From positions 2,245 through 66,244 of the forward strand of contig MSGS01000059.1 of NCBI GenBank assembly GCA_001940855.1: a stretch of 64,000 bases of DNA. The letters are read 5' to 3'. The translations under genes were made by a program, and so were the position numbers. The DNA is from Christensenellaceae bacterium Phil1. GTDB lineage: Bacteria > Bacillota > Clostridia > Christensenellales > CAG-138. Of this stretch, positions 1,765 to 64,000 are shown piece by piece. The notes beneath the pieces were generated by a model. It worked only from the letters and a program-made list of their open reading frames with translations, did no database searches and was not told the origin of the DNA. Position 1 is the stretch's first letter, and each line of letters begins with the position of its first letter.

Positions 1765-3036
1765 TTAGCTAATCTTGATTTTGCCCTCCAAGTTGAAGAT
1801 GCTTTCCTTTTTCTTTTCCTTGGTGGCTTCGCTGTACACATTCATTGTGGTTGAAATGTCAGCGTGTCCCATAATCTCTTGAATGACCTTCAAATTGGTT
1901 TCGTTCTCACAAAACCGTGTGCAGAAAGTGTGTCTCAGATTATGGACGGTAAAGTGTGGCAGCAGCACCGGCTCCCTATGTTCTTCTTCCGCACAGGCGC
2001 TTTCCGCAGCGTTATAGTCACGGCTGATACGCTCGATTGCCCTGTTGATGCAGTGGGGAGAAATACAATCCCCGAACCTGTTCTGGAAGATGAACCCGCT
2101 ATATCCATCGACAACGGATTGGTTAAAGCCATGCCGCATCTGGGACAACCGTGCTTCCAATAAAGCCTGTTTGACCTCTGAAAGCATTGGCACAATCCGC
2201 ACACCCGCTTTTGTCTTCGGCGTGGTGATACGGAACCTACAGTCCCCGCCGTCTTCGCCCTGCCGATAAATCAGATTGTGGTTAATACTGATGATTTCGT
2301 CCTTGAAATCGCAATCTTCCCACCGCAACCCGATAACCTCACCGACCCGACAACCAGTCCCCAGCAACACCGTAAAAAGCGGCAACCAGTGCTGGTAGGT
2401 CTTATGTCCAGCAACATAGCTTACAAACGCTTCTTGCTGGGCTTCGGTCAAAGCGTGGCGTTTGGGCTTCTCCCAATCATGGCTTCGCTTGATTTCATTC
2501 ATCACGCCATCGGTTGGGTTCAACCGAATTAGCCCGTCTCTGACCGCCACATTGAATATGGGGTGAAGAATTGTATGGATAATCTCCATACTGTTTGGCT
2601 TGAAGCCAACATCGTTGATGAGGTGGATATAGAAGTTTTTCACATGGCTGTATCGGATACTTCCAATGTTCATCTGCCCCAGCTCATCGTGTACATATTT
2701 CTTGTACATATACTTGTAGTTGGCTCTGGTAGAGTGCTTTATTTCATACTTGCTTTGAATGTAGCTATCAAAGAAGCTGTTAAGCGTTGTGCGATAAGCC
2801 GCATATCTGTTGATGTCATCGTCCACATCACGCAGAACCGCTTTCTCCATTTCTCGGAGAGACTTTTCACACCGCTTTCCAGCCGGTAAGCTATCTGTCT
2901 CCACCAATTTCCAACTGTATATGCTTCGGGTTTCCCCCTTTACATCTTTGTAACGGAACTCATACCGTCCGTCCTCACGCTGCCGTTCTCCTTGCCGGAG
3001 GTTTCTGCCTTTATTATCTTTTTTCTTAGTATTCAT
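1765..3036 (-). CDS. int: Tyrosine integrase (Tn916-like, N-terminal arm-binding domain)
   Basis: N-terminal KDNKGRNLRQGERQREDGRY; catalytic TGCRVGE, KT, HNLRHT, MGH, VY. Confidence 0.95.
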   Translation of the reverse strand: MNTKKKDNKGRNLRQGERQREDGRYEFRYKDVKGETRSIYSWKLVETDSLPAGKRCEKSLREMEKAVLRDVDDDINRYAAYRTTLNSFFDSYIQSKYEIKHSTRANYKYMYKKYVHDELGQMNIGSIRYSHVKNFYIHLINDVGFKPNSMEIIHTILHPIFNVAVRDGLIRLNPTDGVMNEIKRSHDWEKPKRHALTEAQQEAFVSYVAGHKTYQHWLPLFTVLLGTGCRVGEVIGLRWEDCDFKDEIISINHNLIYRQGEDGGDCRFRITTPKTKAGVRIVPMLSEVKQALLEARLSQMRHGFNQSVVDGYSGFIFQNRFGDCISPHCINRAIERISRDYNAAESACAEEEHREPVLLPHFTVHNLRHTFCTRFCENETNLKVIQEIMGHADISTTMNVYSEATKEKKKESIFNLEGKIKIS

Positions 3037-3125
3037 GGATTCTCCTTTATTTCATTACAAAGAGAACCCGCTTATAAGACATAATCAATATACCATAAGC
3101 GGGCTTCATTTTCAAGGTGGGGGGC

Positions 3126-3335
3126 TTAGACCAAGCTAAGCCCGTCCACATATTGTTCAAACAATTTCCGTTTGATTTGTATACGGTTTCCATTACAAAG
3201 GATATAATCCGCATCCTCATTATCCCGAATTAGCTTTCTTAATTTGTTTTCGCCAATTCTGAAATAGGCGGCAGCTTCTTCGATGGATAATGTATACTGC
3301 TCCCACACAGGGATTTCAACAGTGCTACTACGCAT
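3126..3335 (-). CDS. xis: Excisionase (Tn916 Xis-like)
   Basis: [26 protein letters not shown]...[12 protein letters not shown]; directly upstream of the integrase. Confidence 0.9.
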
Positions 3336-3638
3336 ATTACCGTCCTTTCAATTTGATAGCACCGTTGCCTCCTGCCTTGGGCGAGGATATGAGCGCACAG
3401 AATGTGCGTGATTTGTTATCAAGCAACAGTTTGTTAGATAATGGCTTAACCATCATGCTTTTGTTGGATTAAATCAAAGCTATTGGCTATGGCAATCCGT
3501 TGTGGCACATCACCCCCTTTGTCCAAAAAATAAATGTTGACATCAATCAGCGCATAGGAAGATACGCTCGTTATTGTCATATCACCTTGCTTTTTCAGAT
3601 ATTTTTTTATTAAGGAAACAACTCCGAAAACCCCATAA

Positions 3639-4952
3639 CTAAGCCTTTTCCAGCACCTTCTTTGTACGGGGCTGGTACAAGGCTTCATTAACCTCAAACC
3701 AACGAAACAGTAAGCTTCTCATTCTGGACGATGGAATATAAAGGTTAATGCTTTGCTCGTTGCGTATGGCACTTCTCCAAACCCACTGCAATAATTCACT
3801 CGTTGCAAAGCAATCCTCATCTATTGGACTCCCTCTACGCAAAAAATACTTTTCAATTTCTGGTGGAAGGTAACGGTTTAACAGATACAAAAGCGTGGTT
3901 CGTTCTGAATAAACATTTGTAGCTCTTGCCGTACAGGAAACAAAACATTGCAGCTTTTGTTTAACTTCATCGGGCAGTTTCTGTTCCTCGGCTGTAAGCC
4001 GCCGAATATACTTAAAGCCCTTTGTTTTTTCCAATTTCTTGTGAATGTCGTGTTGCTTTGTAGTAGTCCACATTATGCTATTAGTGGGTGCTTTTACATA
4101 CCCCTTATAATTTCTCATAGCGTTTTGAATTTTCCGTATCTGTTCTGAACTTGCCGCTTTTAACCAATTTACAGAAAAAGCGTTTGTTTTGCTGCCAATC
4201 CGGTTTAATTCTCCAGAGTAAATATTTACAAGGGTGAAAAGCGCACTTTTATGCCTTTTGCAGTCATCATATGGACACAGCCGGAACCTATCGTTTTCCG
4301 TATGCTCTGCGGAACACTTTGTATAAGTCAATCCATAGATACGCATATAAGCTGCGAGCATACTTCCCTCAAAGAGATAGGTTAAGATGTACACGCACTT
4401 GAAAGCTGAAAACATATCTACTGGATATTCCCAATATAGAGTATCGTCAATGCAGCGCAGACTGCCAGCTTTAGCAAGCCGTTCAACCTCAGAATAATGA
4501 AAATCATCTGTTGTCGCACCACTCCACTCAACACAATAATCGTCAGACACAAGGATATAACCCTCTTGTTTTAACCATCGTACATCGCCTTTGGTGATGG
4601 TCTTATTGTCAAGAGATTTTACCTCGTTATTGTATTCTCGGAAAATGTCAAGAGCTTCATCCAATACCAATGTATAACCGCCCTCGCGGATAAGCTGTAC
4701 CGTTTCAGGCGTCGCTTTCAAAAAGAGTGCATGTGTTGTCACAATGTTTTCTCCAATGGATAATAGCTTGTGAAACGCATCTAATTTCCCATTGCCTGTA
4801 TTGCAGGGCTGTTTGAAGCGATTTTGCGTCTTCTCGATAATGCGCTCTATTTCGGATAAGTACGGTGTCACATAGATATAGCTGCCCTCTAAATCGGCAT
4901 TTATCTGTTCCAACATAGCAGAAGTCTTTCCGCTACCCATGATGCTATCCAC
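3639..4952 (-). CDS. SF2/DEAD-like P-loop helicase-family protein (true start probably slightly upstream)
   Basis: Walker A MGSGKT, YVTPYLSE, TTHALF, Walker B LVLDE, ILTY, C-terminal ELLQWVWRSAIR. Confidence 0.75.
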   Translation of the reverse strand: MDSIMGSGKTSAMLEQINADLEGSYIYVTPYLSEIERIIEKTQNRFKQPCNTGNGKLDAFHKLLSIGENIVTTHALFLKATPETVQLIREGGYTLVLDEALDIFREYNNEVKSLDNKTITKGDVRWLKQEGYILVSDDYCVEWSGATTDDFHYSEVERLAKAGSLRCIDDTLYWEYPVDMFSAFKCVYILTYLFEGSMLAAYMRIYGLTYTKCSAEHTENDRFRLCPYDDCKRHKSALFTLVNIYSGELNRIGSKTNAFSVNWLKAASSEQIRKIQNAMRNYKGYVKAPTNSIMWTTTKQHDIHKKLEKTKGFKYIRRLTAEEQKLPDEVKQKLQCFVSCTARATNVYSERTTLLYLLNRYLPPEIEKYFLRRGSPIDEDCFATSELLQWVWRSAIRNEQSINLYIPSSRMRSLLFRWFEVNEALYQPRTKKVLEKA

Positions 4953-4975
4953 TACTGTAATAGTCGTTTTGATAA

Positions 4976-5176
4976 CTATTTTACCTCCATTCTTTCTTGG
5001 ATAAAGCGATATAGCCTATCCGCACATTTTCCACAGATACAAAGTGTTACGCTTTCCCCATCGTAGGAACTGCCATAGCCAAGCTTTAAGCCGATAGATG
5101 ACAATGCCCACTCAGCCACATCAGCCCTGCCGCATATCCGGCACTTCGTAGGCATAAAACTACTCTTTGATTGCAT
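4976..5176 (-). CDS. Small putative zinc-finger protein
   Basis: 66 aa, CRIC ... CICGKC; RBS GGGGGTG upstream; abuts the helicase gene. Confidence 0.6.
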   Translation of the reverse strand: MQSKSSFMPTKCRICGRADVAEWALSSIGLKLGYGSSYDGESVTLCICGKCADRLYRFIQERMEVK

Positions 5177-5198
5177 TTCTTCACCCCCTCTCTATGTT

Positions 5199-5360
5199 TT
5201 ACTTCTTACCGCAAAGGGTAGGACACTTGCGACGGCATGGATGCCCTACACCTCTAATCACAAAGGTTGAGACACCCGCCATCCTTAATCGCAAGGGGTG
5301 TACCCTGCTTGCTCTTAATCGCAAAGGGACAACCCCCCAGCCCATTAAACACAAAAAAGC
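5199..5360 (+). repeat. Array 1 of degenerate ~29-bp hairpin repeat (core CYYTAATCGCAAAGGG), four clear copies and one weak
   Basis: Copies at about 5199, 5247, 5278, 5308 and weakly 5338. Confidence 0.75.
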
Positions 5361-5462
5361 CGCACCCATCGAACGGATATCCGTTTGACAAGTGCGGCAT
5401 TTTTATATGCGCATTATTTATCCAGTTGAAAAAGTTCCCTTAGAAAACAAATCAACCGACTA

Positions 5463-5687
5463 CTACTGTTTCTTTTTGCTCTCTGGGCTATTAAAACCAA
5501 AACCGCCCCCCTCACGCTCCATGCGTTGGGCAATCGCTTGCAAAACATATGCTTGCACCGATTGCCCTGCATCAGCGGCGGCGGCTCTAATCTTCGCCCC
5601 TATCTCCTTGGACGGTCTAATCATAATATTATCCTGCTTACGGTTAAACTCTGTACTTGCTCTTTTCTGTGCTTCTGTTGACATCAT
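5463..5687 (-). CDS. Ribbon-helix-helix (Arc/DUF1778-like) DNA-binding protein, probable repressor
   Basis: STEAQKRAS..FNRKQDNIMIRP..KIRAAAADAGQSVQAYVLQAI pattern; divergent from the ardC operon. Confidence 0.7.
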   Translation of the reverse strand: MMSTEAQKRASTEFNRKQDNIMIRPSKEIGAKIRAAAADAGQSVQAYVLQAIAQRMEREGGGFGFNSPESKKKQ

Positions 5688-27925: not shown

Positions 27926-28300
27926 TTACGCCTTCCAAAGCCCATGCAGATTGCAGTATGCGTAGGCGGCTACCACCTCGTCCCCTTCGCAAAGGGCAAA
28001 GCCTGCTTCGGGCTTTTCGCCGGGCTTGAGCGCCTTACGCTGCACGCCCTGCCTGGTTTGCAGCGCTATCCATTCAATGTAATGCACATCCTGCATGGGA
28101 TGCTCGACCGCGCCAACGCGTACCAGCACGGTGCTGCCGTTCACTTCGTATACCGGAACGTGCTTTTCCCGCGCGGCGTCCACCGTGCCGGGAATAATTT
28201 CAGTCATTTTCTGCCCGCAGCACGTCATTGGCACGCCGCTGCTCCTTACCATTTCAACCATGTTGCCGCAATGCTCGCAAACGAAAAACCTGAGTTCCAT
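27926..28300 (-). CDS. dfx: Desulfoferrodoxin / superoxide reductase
   Basis: CEHCGN, CCG, EKHVP, HPM..HYIEWI, YCNLHGLW. Confidence 0.95.
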   Translation of the reverse strand: MELRFFVCEHCGNMVEMVRSSGVPMTCCGQKMTEIIPGTVDAAREKHVPVYEVNGSTVLVRVGAVEHPMQDVHYIEWIALQTRQGVQRKALKPGEKPEAGFALCEGDEVVAAYAYCNLHGLWKA

Positions 28301-28319
28301 ATTCTTTCAAACCTCCATG

Positions 28320-28350
28320 AATAAGATTAACATCAATTCTTAATCTTATT
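28320..28350. promoter_or_regulatory. AT-rich 11-bp inverted repeat upstream of dfx, candidate operator
   Basis: AATAAGATTAA-9bp-TTAATCTTATT. Confidence 0.45.
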
Positions 28351-28478
28351 ATACTGATAATATTTTGTTTGTCAAGGGGGAAAATAAAACGTGGGGGAGT
28401 TTTATTTATGATGCTTTAATACTGCCTGGCAGCTTCGAGCCGTTCCCTTTGTTCGTTTTACTCCCCCCTACACACTAT

Positions 28479-29459
28479 CGTCACTTGCGTCACATCGTCA
28501 CAAACAGGCTAATTGTCTACGTTTTTTGTGTGACGCAAGGTGTGACGATAAATTCTGCGTCACACGGCGGGCTTACGCATGCGGTGAAATTGCGCTTAGG
28601 CGTTGTAGGGGCCGTCATTGGCGGCCCGCCCGTGGCTATATTTTTTACCTCAACCCCTCAGTCAAACCTTCGGTTTGCCAGCTCCCTCGACAGGGAGCCT
28701 TTTGGTGCGCTTTATAAGCTTACATATTAAGCCTGCCCTGAAAGGGGAGGTGGCAATGAGCGTCAGCGAATTGACGGAGGGGTTATAAAGCAGCTTACAG
28801 CTCTTTGTTTATTACAACCCCTCAGTCTCACTTCGTTCGACAGCTCCTCGTAAAGGGGCGCCTTTATGCCGCAGGCATTACATGAGGTCTGAAAGGCCGA
28901 ATCATCTGTTACAGCTGTGCTGTCTTATGTACCGCAGTGACTAAAGATTAACAAAGAAAGGTATATAGAAGTAGTATATAGTGAAGGCGGTAGATACGTT
29001 GCGCTTTCACCTGAGCGTGGTGACACGCCTTAAAGCTGTCCCCGTTTACGGGGAAAGTGGCATGGCGTAGCCATGACGAAAGGGGAACGGTTAAAGTAGC
29101 CAAGCAGTTTTACTATTCCCCCTCAGACAATCCGCCTTACGGCGTATTGCCAGCTCCCTCGACAGGGCGCCTTTTGGTGCGCTTTATAAGCTTACATATT
29201 AAGCCTGCCCTGAAAGGGGAGGTGGATTTTGCGAAGCAAAAGCCGGAGGGGTTGAAAAAAGAAAGAGGCTTCGCTTGTTATCGTCAACCCCTCAGTCACG
29301 TCTTACGCCGTGCCAGTTCCCCGTCCGGGGAGCCTTATGGTGAACGGATTTCACCGCGTACGTAAGCCCGCCGTGTGACGCAGAATTTATCGTCACACCT
29401 TGCGTCACACAAAAAACGTAGACAATTAGCCTGTTTGTGACGATGTGACGCAAGTGACG
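28479..29459. repeat. Composite non-coding element bounded by 112-bp inverted repeats
   Basis: 28479-28590 is the reverse complement of 29348-29459 with two mismatches; each arm has six CGTCAC/GTGACG motifs. Confidence 0.88.
28605..28628 (+). repeat. GTAG-type REP-like palindrome
   Basis: GTAG-GGGCCGTCA-T-TGGCGGCCC-G; second copy inverted at 42168-42191. Confidence 0.65.
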
Positions 29460-29553
29460 CAGATGTATGGGAGGGGGTGGAGCAGCTTAATTGTGCTGTA
29501 TAAAAAGGCTCCCCTTTACGGGGAGCTGTCGAACGAAGTGAGACTGAGGGGGT
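28652..29553. repeat. Cluster 1 of the two-hairpin ~50-bp repeat, eight units in alternating orientation
   Basis: Units at 28652-28699(+), 28731-28784(-), 28816-28862(+), 29035-29085(-), 29118-29171(+), 29203-29253(-), 29286-29334(+), 29507-29553(-); scaffold AACCCCTCmGTC-hairpin-CCAsCTCCCy-loop-rGGGAGCC. Confidence 0.88.
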
Positions 29554-29611
29554 GACGATATAAAAAAAGGGAACGCCAGCGCGTTCCCCTGCAAGCTTAT
29601 TCAGTCTATAC

Positions 29612-30049
29612 TTACTTTATTATGTCTATGGTGCCTATGAGCGGCAGGCGCTTCATTTCGCCCTTGCAAACGCTCACCAGGGCCATTATCCAAAGGACTA
29701 CCTGGAATACCCAGATGAGTATGCCTATAACTATGCCCGCGGTGATGCTGGCAACCACGCTAAGAAGCAGCAGAAGCAGCGCCTGATTGGCCCAGAAGGT
29801 GCCGAACTCGGTCTTGGGGTTGGTCACTATGGGCAGGAAGAACAGAATGGGGAACACAACGGCAAGTATGGCCATTGTTTTGCTGTTGTCGGACTGAACC
29901 GGCTGCTGAGCGGGCTGCTGAGTGGGGTTGGTGTAGTCCGCGTTCTGCCGGACGTTGGATTGGGCGGCTTCGCCGGTGGTCGCGCCGCAGGTGGGGCAGA
30001 ACTTTGCGCCGTCATCGTACTGCGCGCCGCAATTTGTGCAATAAGGCAT
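29612..30049 (-). CDS. Zinc-ribbon domain membrane protein (DUF4870-like)
   Basis: CTNCG...FCPTCG, Q/P linker, FWANQAL, LPLIG. Confidence 0.82.
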   Translation of the reverse strand: MPYCTNCGAQYDDGAKFCPTCGATTGEAAQSNVRQNADYTNPTQQPAQQPVQSDNSKTMAILAVVFPILFFLPIVTNPKTEFGTFWANQALLLLLLSVVASITAGIVIGILIWVFQVVLWIMALVSVCKGEMKRLPLIGTIDIIK

Positions 30050-41864: not shown

Positions 41865-42225
41865 GACGGAGGGGTTGACGATAACAAGCGAAGCTTCTTT
41901 CTTTTTTCAACCCCTCCGGCTTTTGCTTCGCAAAACCCACAACGCTGGTTGGAATATGGTCGTCTTGCTACGCTGCCGCTTGCAATACTCCCTATTCCGC
42001 CCGATTCTCCCCTCGCTGCATCGCCCACTGGGCGCGCTCGGCTCGAATCCCCTTTCAGGGCAGGCCCATCATATAAGCTTGTAAAGCGCACCAAAAGGCT
42101 CCCCTTTACGGGGAGCTGTCGAACGAAGTGAGACTGAGGGGTTGACGTAAACACGCATAGCCACGGGCGGGCCGCCGATGACGGCCCCTACAACGCCTAA
42201 GCGCAATTTCCCTGCATGCGTAAGC
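41865..42225. repeat. Cluster 2 of the two-hairpin repeat with a nested 107-bp insert and a GTAG REP
   Basis: Inverted mosaic copy of parts of 28571-28740 and 29162-29297; units 41865-41876 (partial), 41909-42066 (interrupted), 42097-42143. Confidence 0.85.
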
Positions 42226-56229: not shown

Positions 56230-56283
56230 GAGGAGCAGCACATAATTTCGGCCAAATCCCAGTCAATTCATCATCGCTTAATG

Positions 56284-56313
56284 AACCTCCCTAATAGAAT
56301 AGGGGAGGTTTTT
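56284..56313 (+). terminator. Intrinsic terminator
   Basis: AACCTCCCT...GGGGAGGTTTTT. Confidence 0.6.
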
Positions 56314-56338
56314 GGTATTGCGCCGCCAACCCTAAAAA

Positions 56339-56652
56339 GCTGTCCCCGCGGGCGGGAAAGTGGCTGCGAATGAAATGAGCAGACGGAGGGGTTAAAAAGA
56401 AGCTTGCAGTTCTTTGTCTGTTTCAACCCCTCAGTCGCCTGACGGCGTCAGCTCCCCGTCCGGGGAGCCTTTTGGACTCCCTCAGTCAAACCTTCGGTTT
56501 GCCAGCTCCCTCTAAGAGGGAGCCTTTTGGCAATGTACGCGCTCGGGGGCGATAGTGTGTAAAATAGGTTAGGTGGGATTAACCGTGCGGCGCAAAAAAA
56601 CCTCCCTATAAAGAGAGGTTGCAATAAGCATTAGCGAATCGGCGGATGGGGG
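56339..56652. repeat. Cluster 3 of the two-hairpin repeat, four units
   Basis: Units 56339-56393(-), 56425-56469(+), 56476-56524(+), 56599-56652(-, degenerate). Confidence 0.82.
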
Positions 56653-63491: not shown

Positions 63492-63540
63492 ACTCCCTCA
63501 GTCAAACCTTTGGTTTGCCAGCTCCCTCCAAGAGGGAGCC
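63492..63540 (+). repeat. Two-hairpin repeat unit immediately upstream of the DUF559 gene
   Basis: 47/49 identical to 56476-56524. Confidence 0.88.
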
Positions 63541-63563
63541 TTTTGGCAGAAAGGAAGATAGTT

Positions 63564-63920
63564 ATGTCCTTGCCGTATAAAGGGGAGTTAATACCAAGGG
63601 CGCGGGAACTCAGAAAGGAGTCCACAAAGCAGGAAAAGCATTTGTGGTATGATTTCCTTAAGGATTATCCCGTAAGATTTCAACGGCAAAAAACAATAAA
63701 GGGGTTTATAGCCGATTTTTATTGCGCCAAGGCAAAATTGATTATTGAATTAGATGGTAGGCAGCATTATTCGGAGCAGGGGAAGCTATATGACAACGAG
63801 CGTTCCGCTTTGCTGGGCGAATACGGTTTAACGGTGCTTAGGTTTTCCAACTATGCCGTTGACAATGATTTTGAGAGCGTGTGCGCTCTGATAGATGCAA
63901 CGGTAAAAGCGCGGGTATAA
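63564..63920 (+). CDS. DUF559 / Vsr-like endonuclease domain protein (118 aa)
   Basis: RARELRK..T..E..LW, FQRQ, FIADFYC, LIIELDG.QH, D..R...L...G..VLRF.N; RBS AAGGA before ATG 63564. Confidence 0.9.
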   Translation: MSLPYKGELIPRARELRKESTKQEKHLWYDFLKDYPVRFQRQKTIKGFIADFYCAKAKLIIELDGRQHYSEQGKLYDNERSALLGEYGLTVLRFSNYAVDNDFESVCALIDATVKARV

Positions 63921-63947
63921 AGGCACTGCGGCTTTAAGACATCATAA

Positions 63948-64000
63948 GCCTCCCTCTTAGAGGGAGGTGGCTGCGAGCGCAGTGAGCAGACGGAAGGAGT
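63948..64000 (-). repeat. Inverted two-hairpin repeat unit downstream of the DUF559 gene
   Basis: GCCTCCCTCTTAGAGGGAGGTGG-hairpin-GACGGAAGGAGT, same scaffold as 28731-28784 and 56339-56393. Confidence 0.85.

Follow-up and report, generated by a model that had tools for sequence, protein, structure and literature searches.

The stretch of DNA analysed here (64,000 nucleotides (nt) from Christensenellaceae bacterium Phil1, hereafter the window) contains at 28301-29611 a 1.3-kb gap poor in open reading frames (ORFs), which holds a cluster of short structured repeats, referred to below as units, at 28652-29553. The gap is bordered by a desulfoferrodoxin gene on one side (27926-28300, minus strand) and by a zinc-ribbon gene on the other (29612-30049, minus strand); the former has a consensus promoter at 28375-28348 and the latter a terminator at 29590-29567. 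Further units are found elsewhere in the window, and two of them flank an intact gene encoding a 118-residue nuclease of the DUF559 family (PF04480; Vsr-like PD-(D/E)xK) at 63564-63920 on the plus strand. The genome as a whole (2.85 Mb in 78 contigs, 52% G+C, 96% complete) carries 131 well-formed units according to a pattern search and at least 138 according to a covariance model. The strand-specific fold of these units and their association with DUF559 genes suggest that they are the ends and gene-less derivatives of selfish elements encoding this nuclease.

Part of each unit is the box AACCCCTCMGTC, of which the window has 11 copies with at most one mismatch, compared to 0.29 expected. Six of these lie within 28652-29553 and the rest at 41865-42143 and 56382-56436. 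A covariance model trained on 13 local units recovered eight units within the cluster and six more elsewhere in the window. A tandem repeat finder misses them, since they are dispersed and lie in inverted orientation. With a length of about 48-60 nt, a unit comprises two hairpins and a G-tract. Read along the strand that carries this tract (the G strand), the order is pyrimidine arm, short loop and purine arm (together hairpin 2), 2-3 nt, hairpin 1, 1-2 nt, and the G-tract contributed by the box. Type A units have the box ..CTCAGTC and the stem CAGCTCC, type B units the box ..CTCCGKC and the stem CACCTCC, and a type C is rarer.

The cluster opens with an A1 unit at 28652-28705 (minus, that is, with the G strand on the minus strand; 71.1 bits) whose hairpin 1 reads AAACC-GAA-GGTTT, followed by a B1 unit at 28725-28784 (plus, 62.0 bits) in which hairpin 1 has tandem G.A mismatches and a GTCA loop, and by a second A1 unit at 28816-28868 (minus, 54.3 bits) with hairpin 1 GTC-GA-AC-GAA-GT-GA-GAC, again with tandem G.A. 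A type C unit at 29029-29086 (plus, 32.4 bits) combines the purine arm GGGGAAAG and the third tract GAAAGGGG with hairpin 1 CATGGC-GTA-GCCATG. Next are an A3 unit at 29117-29177 (minus, 56.3 bits), its hairpin 1 containing CGCC-GTAA-GGCG, a B1 unit at 29197-29253 (plus, 53.6 bits) with TTTTGC-GAA-GCAAAA, and an A1 unit at 29286-29340 (minus, 63.5 bits) with ACGGC-GTAA-GACGT. The last is an A unit at 29501-29553 (plus, 62.4 bits) with AC-GAA-GT and tandem G.A. In all eight units the G-strand loop of hairpin 1 is GAA, GTA, GTAA or GTCA and is closed by a C-G pair.

A preliminary description of this region, made from the letters alone, had proposed that hairpin 1 changes its sequence among copies while staying paired. 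Every hairpin it listed is present, including CGCC-GTCA-GGCG at 56434-56445 and GC-GCA-GT in the unit at 63942-64000, and the proposal holds for the genome at large, where 131 units contain 74 distinct hairpin-1 segments. We measured pairing in two alignments of distinct sequences, one from this genome (92 rows) and one from 26 other genomes (66 rows). In the first, 88.7% of the cells are paired, compared to 69.0% in shuffles, and the covariation score is 0.431 against 0.138 in shuffles, with none of 500 shuffles scoring as high and slid controls reaching at most 0.096. In the second, 95.2% of the cells are paired against 72.1%, and the score is 0.498 against 0.160, again with none of 500 shuffles as high. 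Both alignments were fitted to the covariance model, which favors pairing, a concern that is limited by the slid controls and by the independent genome set. The covariation is clear in both cases, and the three middle pairs of hairpin 1 occur in all four Watson-Crick types. Near-identical DUF559 elements from different genomes likewise carry B-unit hairpins that differ in sequence and have the same fold, which indicates that fold and not sequence is conserved.

The fold is also asymmetric with respect to the DNA strands. C-G is the closing pair in 62 of the 74 distinct segments, and the G-strand loops of the 74 include GAA (12), GTAA (8), GTA (7), GCAA and GATA (5 each), GTTA (4), GTCA and GCA (3 each) and GTGA (2). 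Of the distinct hairpins in the two alignments, 46 of 71 and 30 of 47 have a loop of the form GNA or GNNA, compared to 0 and 2 with the complementary TNC or TNNC loops. Non-Watson-Crick cells are distributed in the same manner: on the G strand, G.A (133) and G.T (24) far outnumber C.T (5) and A.C (3) in the first alignment, as do G.A (40) and G.T (21) compared to C.T (1) and A.C (2) in the second. The summed DNA folding energy of hairpin 1 is -309.9 for the G strand and -251.0 for the C strand; the four segments that the energy model leaves unfolded are of the tandem-GA type. C-GNA-G and C-GNNA-G loops of the GCGAAGC type form ultra-stable DNA mini-hairpins. Hairpin 1 resembles these in that its tip is in most cases C(GNA)G or C(GNNA)G, frequently together with sheared-type tandem G.A pairs, and differs from them in that it sits within a larger conserved module and is not always of that type. 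Selection on a strand-specific fold, as the preliminary description had supposed, is thus strongly supported by covariation and by the asymmetry of both mismatches and loops.

The box is part of this fold as well. The preliminary description had treated the box and the hairpin-2 stem as a fixed scaffold, which has to be revised: the two co-vary within types A and B as coordinated subfamilies (AACCCC, ACTCCC, TCCCCC), and the 3' G-tract of the box mirrors the hairpin-2 purine arm (for example GGGGAG with GAGGGG, GAGGGAG with GAGGGAG, and GGGGAGG with GGAGGGG). In this genome a mirror run of at least 6 occurs in 99 of 134 units, compared to 22 of 134 in an unmirrored control, and mirror runs average 5.85, whereas permuting the partners gives 5.28 (maximum 5.43 in 500 permutations). 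The average rises to 6.83 in the 26 other genomes, where permutation gives 5.48 (at most 5.79 in 500) and the unmirrored control 5.24. Across genomes there are compensated triples, such as AAGGGGGC with TGGGGGAT and AAGGAGGG with GGGAGGAT, in which matched changes are found in all three strands. Mirror symmetry is what a purine-motif triplex requires, whereas it is meaningless both for Watson-Crick pairing and for a dimeric protein that binds duplex DNA; a mirror tract that co-varies with the purine arm is therefore the signature of a class II purine-motif intrastrand triplex. Judged by this signature, each unit probably places a hairpin inside a three-stranded DNA fold.

In layout the units fit a hairpin-bearing variant of the BoxC/PIT/TMECO triplex-type repeats, a likeness that the preliminary description had missed, along with the role of the box in the fold. 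TMECOs (formerly BoxC or PIT) are described as a C-rich arm joined through a loop of 3-6 nt to a G-rich arm, which a further loop of 3 nt connects to another G-rich arm; their types A and B pair in inverted orientation, 23 copies are present in Escherichia coli MG1655, and their function is unassigned (Holder et al. 2015, PMC4666352). Units share with them the succession of C-rich arm, loop, G-rich arm, second loop and second G-rich tract as a possible third strand, and also the inverted A+B pairs, the intergenic position, the multiple copies and a copy number that varies sharply among close relatives; to neither has a function been assigned. They differ in that the second loop of the units is a mini-hairpin of 13-26 nt plus about 3 unpaired nt, compared to 3 nt in TMECOs, and in that their arms are 6-8 nt long, compared to 9 nt. 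The purine arm and the third tract of a unit are consequently 18-32 nt apart, outside the short-loop definition of BoxC/PIT/TM repeats. The search of Holder et al. allowed loops of at most 6 nt (1-6), and that of Hoyne (2000), as cited there, loops of 0-10 nt, so a hairpin-bearing variant could not have been found under either limit. The same source states that a purine-motif triplex is unable to form in RNA, that triplex repeats are associated with genomic instability, and that transposase or integrase remnants were "never found" near TMECOs (PMC4666352).

The DUF559 protein encoded in the window matches PF04480 with an E-value of 3e-28 (99.1 bits, cut-off 20.6) and the Protein Data Bank entry 3hrl ("endonuclease-like protein") with 5e-12. 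Twelve residues (W28, L32, D51, F52, E62, D64, G65, H68, D77, R80, R93 and N96) are invariant in all 34 aligned DUF559 proteins, and the window protein retains every one of them. Its gene has an A2 unit 18 nt upstream (63492-63546, minus, 75.5 bits) and a B2 unit 21 nt downstream (63942-64000, plus, 65.7 bits; hairpin 1 GC-GCA-GT), and the latter is followed, just past the end of the window, by an A2-B2 pair without a gene. A B box supplies GGAGGG 7 nt before the DUF559 ATG, and in many DUF559 ORFs the last residues are encoded by the A box and hairpin 1. In this way the gene and its units are interlocked.

Vsr acts on T:G mismatches in duplex DNA, and the Vsr-like homing enzyme I-Bth0305I sits in introns or inteins. 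DUF559 belongs to the same fold group as these small enzymes, which nick or cut at a specific DNA feature and one of which is a selfish homing enzyme. The difference lies in the structured repeats that flank DUF559 genes, as neither Vsr nor I-Bth0305I is known to have such flanks. In the classification of Steczkiewicz et al. (2012, PMC3424549), DUF559 shares group 58 with Vsr and with a homing endonuclease from a group I intron, and Vsr is a repair nickase; YcjD, the DUF559 protein of E. coli, detects Vsr in the analysis of Kosinski et al. (2005).

The association of DUF559 with units is both physical and genomic. A small ORF between two unit clusters was first seen at a distant locus. A profile search of this genome with PF04480 gave three matches, all adjoining units. 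We also scanned 41 relatives, for which only counts are given, as kin are not independent. All four relatives with many pattern matches have DUF559. By the covariance model, 11 of the 41 carry units and seven of these 11 have DUF559; among the 30 without units there were one strong DUF559 match and two weak ones, and the genome with the strong match carries diverged units of its own. Decayed DUF559 fragments lie beside units in this genome (locus L145, contig C75, 16081-16254) and in a relative (locus L156, genome G003, contig C64, 1605-1778). They cover profile positions 53-108 with one in-frame TGA, and represent an old pseudogene kept in both species.

In an even sample of 200 genomes across the class, 27 had DUF559, and we took loci from the 26 genomes other than the present one. 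All 29 of these loci have units (72 matches in 86 kb), compared to none of 26 loci of ribosomal protein L19 from the same genomes (0 matches in 85 kb). Typically one unit ends at most about 90 nt upstream of the DUF559 gene and another, on the opposite strand, lies just downstream, with hairpin 2 outermost. A generic triplex-motif finder that uses only the arm and mirror rule, with no family sequence, gave a similar picture: motifs were detected at 29 of 29 DUF559 loci of the class, at 12 of 16 other DUF559 loci and at 0 of 26 L19 controls. The four loci missed include E. coli ycjD, where the TMECO has an arm mismatch.

Both forms of repeat also turn up outside the class, the hairpin-bearing one in Caulobacter, Bifidobacterium, Deinococcus and other bacteria. 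The covariance model built from this genome detected no full units beside the DUF559 genes on plasmids of Synechocystis, Pseudanabaena, Azospirillum and Deinococcus, and at the Sphingomonas locus it matched hairpin 2 only; in four of these five plasmid loci, all but Synechocystis, the hairpin-less form is present. These hairpin-less triplex motifs, which flank DUF559 in Azospirillum, Deinococcus, Sphingomonas and Pseudanabaena (on plasmids or chromids), were recognized by eye and partly by the generic finder. In E. coli K-12, a TMECO is located about 170 nt downstream of ycjD and a degenerate TMECO lies over its stop codon. In Azospirillum, Deinococcus, Sphingomonas and E. coli, it is the classical BoxC/PIT/TMECO form that flanks DUF559. 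Neither ycjD nor an endonuclease is mentioned in the main text of Holder et al. (2015, PMC4666352), and a search of one paper library on DUF559, ycjD and BoxC/PIT/triplex repeats returned no paper linking the nuclease to the repeats. A literature search by motif gave nothing but eukaryotic and viral papers without relation to the units. On the Sphingomonas plasmid (locus L242, NZ_CP155753.1, 112589-112999), the DUF559 gene is flanked by CCTCCCCTTCAGGGGAGG hairpins and lies between sufB and sufC, an insertion that apparently leaves the Fe-S cluster operon intact.

Within this genome the units occur in several arrangements. There are 31 head-to-head pairs, nearly all of an A with a B unit and separated by a spacer of 26-32 nt; tail-to-tail pairs about 24 nt apart and direct tandems also occur, and together these build mosaics. 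Arrays frequently begin right after a terminator-like hairpin and T-run. The A unit itself ends in a feature of this kind, which could explain the stacking of arrays, should such sites be preferred targets.

The distribution of units is patchy. Among 16 congeneric species the counts range from 0 to at least 138, loci that look alike are found mainly in gut Clostridia, and near-identical DUF559 elements are present in four bacterial families. The gap orthologous to window positions 56333-56530 measures 84 nt, with a plain terminator, in relative G001 and extends over 2.8 kb in G011, the closest relative, compared to 424 nt and three units in this genome. The cluster at 41865-42143 lies at a synteny break, where gene order differs from that of three relatives; its flanks are on different contigs or beside different genes in those relatives, so that only the break itself can be stated. 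At the cluster at 28652-29553, the contigs of the two closest relatives end in the repeats. Miniature inverted-repeat transposable elements combine terminal inverted repeats with a target-site duplication and a cognate transposase. Here inverted ends are present, the comparisons with relatives gave neither a target duplication nor an exact empty site, and in place of a known transposase the candidate partner is a hydrolase. The 2.8-kb insert of G011 (locus L178, contig C26, about 2894-5661, orthologous to window 56230-56650) carries several units and an IS200-like Y1 transposase gene, from which it appears that other mobile DNA accumulates in these arrays.

We therefore favor, with a probability of roughly 0.6, the reading that units are strand-polarized DNA modules that serve as the ends, and in gene-less form as the derivatives, of DUF559-encoding selfish elements, the nuclease probably recognizing the folded G strand. 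Under this model a unit would be a single-strand DNA fold in which a short triplex is connected by a stable mini-hairpin. Hairpin 1 would take the place of the 3-nt second loop of BoxC/PIT/TMECO and act as a structural connector, which would allow its sequence to drift while the fold is kept. Replication, transcription or extrusion from supercoiled DNA could expose the G-strand fold. A and B units inverted around a DUF559 gene would constitute the autonomous element, and an A/B pair around a 26-32-nt spacer its gene-less derivative; such derivatives would have multiplied and stacked into mosaic arrays such as the one at 28652-29553. The DUF559 protein, a candidate partner of the fold found by association, would recognize the folded G strand, single-stranded or extruded, and nick it, and host repair or replication would afterwards copy or relocate the element and its gene-less derivatives. 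In this sequence of events nuclease activity, recognition of the fold, triplex formation and mobility are all presumed, whereas the data themselves show the signature of the fold, its strand asymmetry, the triple covariation, the physical and genomic link to DUF559 and the patchy distribution.

Several points weigh against this reading. The weakest is the chemistry, as a PD-(D/E)xK hydrolase cannot rejoin DNA and the step of transposition is missing. Cross-species comparisons at 41865-42143 and 56333-56530 revealed no exact insertion junction or target duplication, the element ends at the latter site not being fixed because the sequences are too diverged. The putative triplex has only 6-8 triads, and the mirror run is merely 4-5 in some lineages. 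DUF559 was not seen in four of the 11 unit-bearing relatives (G001 with 33 units, G012 with 30, G004 with 22 and G017 with 2). The only intact DUF559 gene of this genome has units of subfamily 2 in the opposite, tail-to-tail layout, and units of the commonest subfamily 1 adjoin only decayed DUF559 copies, so most units in this genome may be inert. Hairpin 2 with its TTTT resembles a terminator, a feature the preliminary description had overlooked. Finally, unit clusters favor convergent gene ends: of 48 clusters, 21 lie in convergent, 20 in tandem and 7 in divergent gaps (13 more are at contig ends), compared to about 17% convergent, 66% tandem and 17% divergent among all intergenic gaps. This census is based on a crude longest-ORF map, which mis-called at least the desulfoferrodoxin gene.

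The last two points belong equally to an account in which the units are host-useful structural repeats (bidirectional terminators, insulators or stabilizers of mRNA 3' ends) spread by recombination, with DUF559 merely landing nearby. It draws support from the excess of clusters between convergent genes, from arrays that often start just past a terminator-like hairpin, and from the A units, in which TTTTGG comes after a terminal G+C hairpin; of the eight cluster units, two pass a terminator scan. A terminator, however, needs neither hairpin 1 nor a co-varying mirror G-tract, nor GNA loops on the strand opposite the T-run, and B units have no T-run. The units are dispensable, as 30 of 41 relatives do without them, and the DUF559 gene exactly fills the space between the boxes, which also supply its ribosome-binding site and its final codons. 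We consider this account unlikely; hairpin 2 and its T-run may still have a side role in termination. We regard it as improbable, too, that DUF559 is a host-protective repair enzyme for lesions or stalled forks at triplex repeats, co-selected with the repeats and not moving them. The role of its relative Vsr as a repair nickase (PMC3424549), the instability tied to triplex repeats (Holder et al. 2015) and the co-occurrence of units and DUF559 at the genome level are all in keeping with such a function. A repair gene acting in trans, however, needs no repeats on both sides, yet these are found at 29 of 29 loci; it need not travel with units between bacterial families or into operons; and four genomes keep 2 to 33 units with no DUF559.

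Whether the functional form could be RNA, as a small or cis-acting RNA with GNRA-type loops and G.U pairs, bears on the fold itself. GUAA, GCAA and GUGA are GNRA tetraloops, and the tolerance of G.T and G.A on one strand would also fit RNA. Against this, the 4227 covariance models of Rfam gave only chance-level matches, well below gathering scores, in 28300-29700; units occur in both orientations relative to neighboring genes and to DUF559; the structured strand switches between the DNA strands within a doublet; and the mirror-repeat covariation has no meaning for RNA pairing, the purine-motif triplex being reported not to form in RNA (Holder et al. 2015). We find an RNA form highly improbable. 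That the fold is one of DNA and not of RNA, as the preliminary description had it, is supported only indirectly, by the mirror tract and by the two orientations.

A last alternative, in which a Y1 (HUH) transposase moves the units as elements of the REP/REPIN or IS200/IS605 type, is largely refuted, and we give it next to no weight. REP sequences are single imperfect palindromes of 20-40 nt with a conserved 5' tetranucleotide (the GTAG head). Mosaic alternating arrays, inverted doublets and strand-biased hairpins do recall REP, BIME and REPIN: in all of these, short structured repeats are present as single copies, inverted doublets and mosaics with conserved linkers, and in REP/REPIN-RAYT systems, as here, a single small enzyme gene is flanked by inverted repeats and distribution is patchy. 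The enzyme, however, is a PD-(D/E)xK hydrolase here and a Y1 HUH transposase there, and a two-hairpin triplex-type module stands against a single palindrome with a GTAG head; units have no 5' tetranucleotide of the GTAG type. The ends of IS200/IS605 and their miniature derivatives are recognized as one-strand folded hairpins and not as duplex, which we suppose for the units as well, but there both hairpins are on the same strand and Y1 is needed, whereas here the structured strand alternates between the ends. PF01797 was not found in this genome or in the unit-rich relatives G003 and G027, and is present in G011 and in G004, the latter with only 22 units. As its presence does not correlate with units, a RAYT/Y1 partner was rejected.

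Two other identities were considered and rejected. A mini-ORF within the B unit is not consistent, as a Shine-Dalgarno sequence and ATG are present in some copies and absent in others, and units do not qualify as integron attC sites, having neither cassettes nor an R-box consensus.

The reading of units as ends and derivatives of DUF559 elements can be extended, more tentatively and with slightly less than even confidence, to the family as a whole. DUF559 proteins might be structure-specific nucleases for intrastrand triplexes on single-stranded or extruded DNA, whether or not a mini-hairpin is inserted, that drive a widespread and so far undescribed class of hydrolase-based selfish elements. 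The BoxC/PIT/TMECO repeats of E. coli and many other bacteria would be gene-less offspring of these, and YcjD the partner they lack. BoxC/PIT/TM repeats, known from the 1990s on, were shown to fold into triplex DNA and to mark unstable loci, and their origin, partner enzyme and function are unassigned. A partnership with DUF559 may thus explain a repeat family that has been without a partner enzyme for decades. If true, it would assign a role to a large uncharacterized protein family, provide a further instance of a DNA triplex recognized by a protein in nature, and define a type of selfish element that uses neither transposase, recombinase nor HUH enzyme.

The units also have a practical consequence, as they break assemblies and coincide with synteny breaks. 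Numerous contigs of this genome terminate in units. Contigs from public sequencing runs break off over the region near 28492 and start again near 29522, the joints deriving from other copies of the repeat, and summed contig depth reaches about 1600 within the repeats, compared to about 56 in the flanks. One metatranscriptome contig, with a depth of 2.3, covers 28775-28916, which speaks neither for nor against transcription.

Of the remaining units in the window, an A1 unit is located at 42091-42143 (plus, 63.7 bits), a type C unit at 56333-56393 (plus, 42.6 bits), and an A1 unit, which carries the CGCC-GTCA-GGCG hairpin mentioned above, at 56425-56475 (minus, 59.1 bits), directly followed by an A2 unit at 56476-56530 (minus, 76.5 bits). 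At 41909-42075 (plus, with the C strand on plus), the hairpin-2 region of a B-type unit is split by a repeated insert of about 120 nt. This insert (41946-42062, about 117 nt) has nine BLAST places in the genome, six of them over at least 107 nt, and related sequence follows an A box at four other sites. Possibly the insert is another small element, with the purine-arm region of units as its target. In a further genome (locus L186, G184), an A unit and additional sequence are nested in hairpin 2 of the B unit that precedes a DUF559 gene, a further instance of an insertion at hairpin 2.

The cluster at 28652-29553 is bounded by another kind of repeat, which we call the E module, a 131-nt inverted repeat with GTGACG words. 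Its left arm is at 28460-28590 and its right arm at 29348-29478; the two are 92% complementary and 757 nt apart. On contigs C75, C9 and C74, unit clusters are enclosed by arm pairs of a similar kind, and a single arm is located at the start of contig C7, so that the bracketed stretch (about 0.7-1.1 kb) looks like a larger ORF-less composite repeat with at least five copies. In diverged copies of the E module the words change jointly (GTGACG versus TCGACG), which suggests a hairpin or an array of protein-binding sites. A module D (GGCGGGCCGCC..GACGGCCCC) adjoins unit clusters at 28578-28640 and 42150-42215 and has 12 BLAST matches in the genome. The sole Rfam match in the window at gathering threshold is a tRNA gene at 538-611 on the minus strand.

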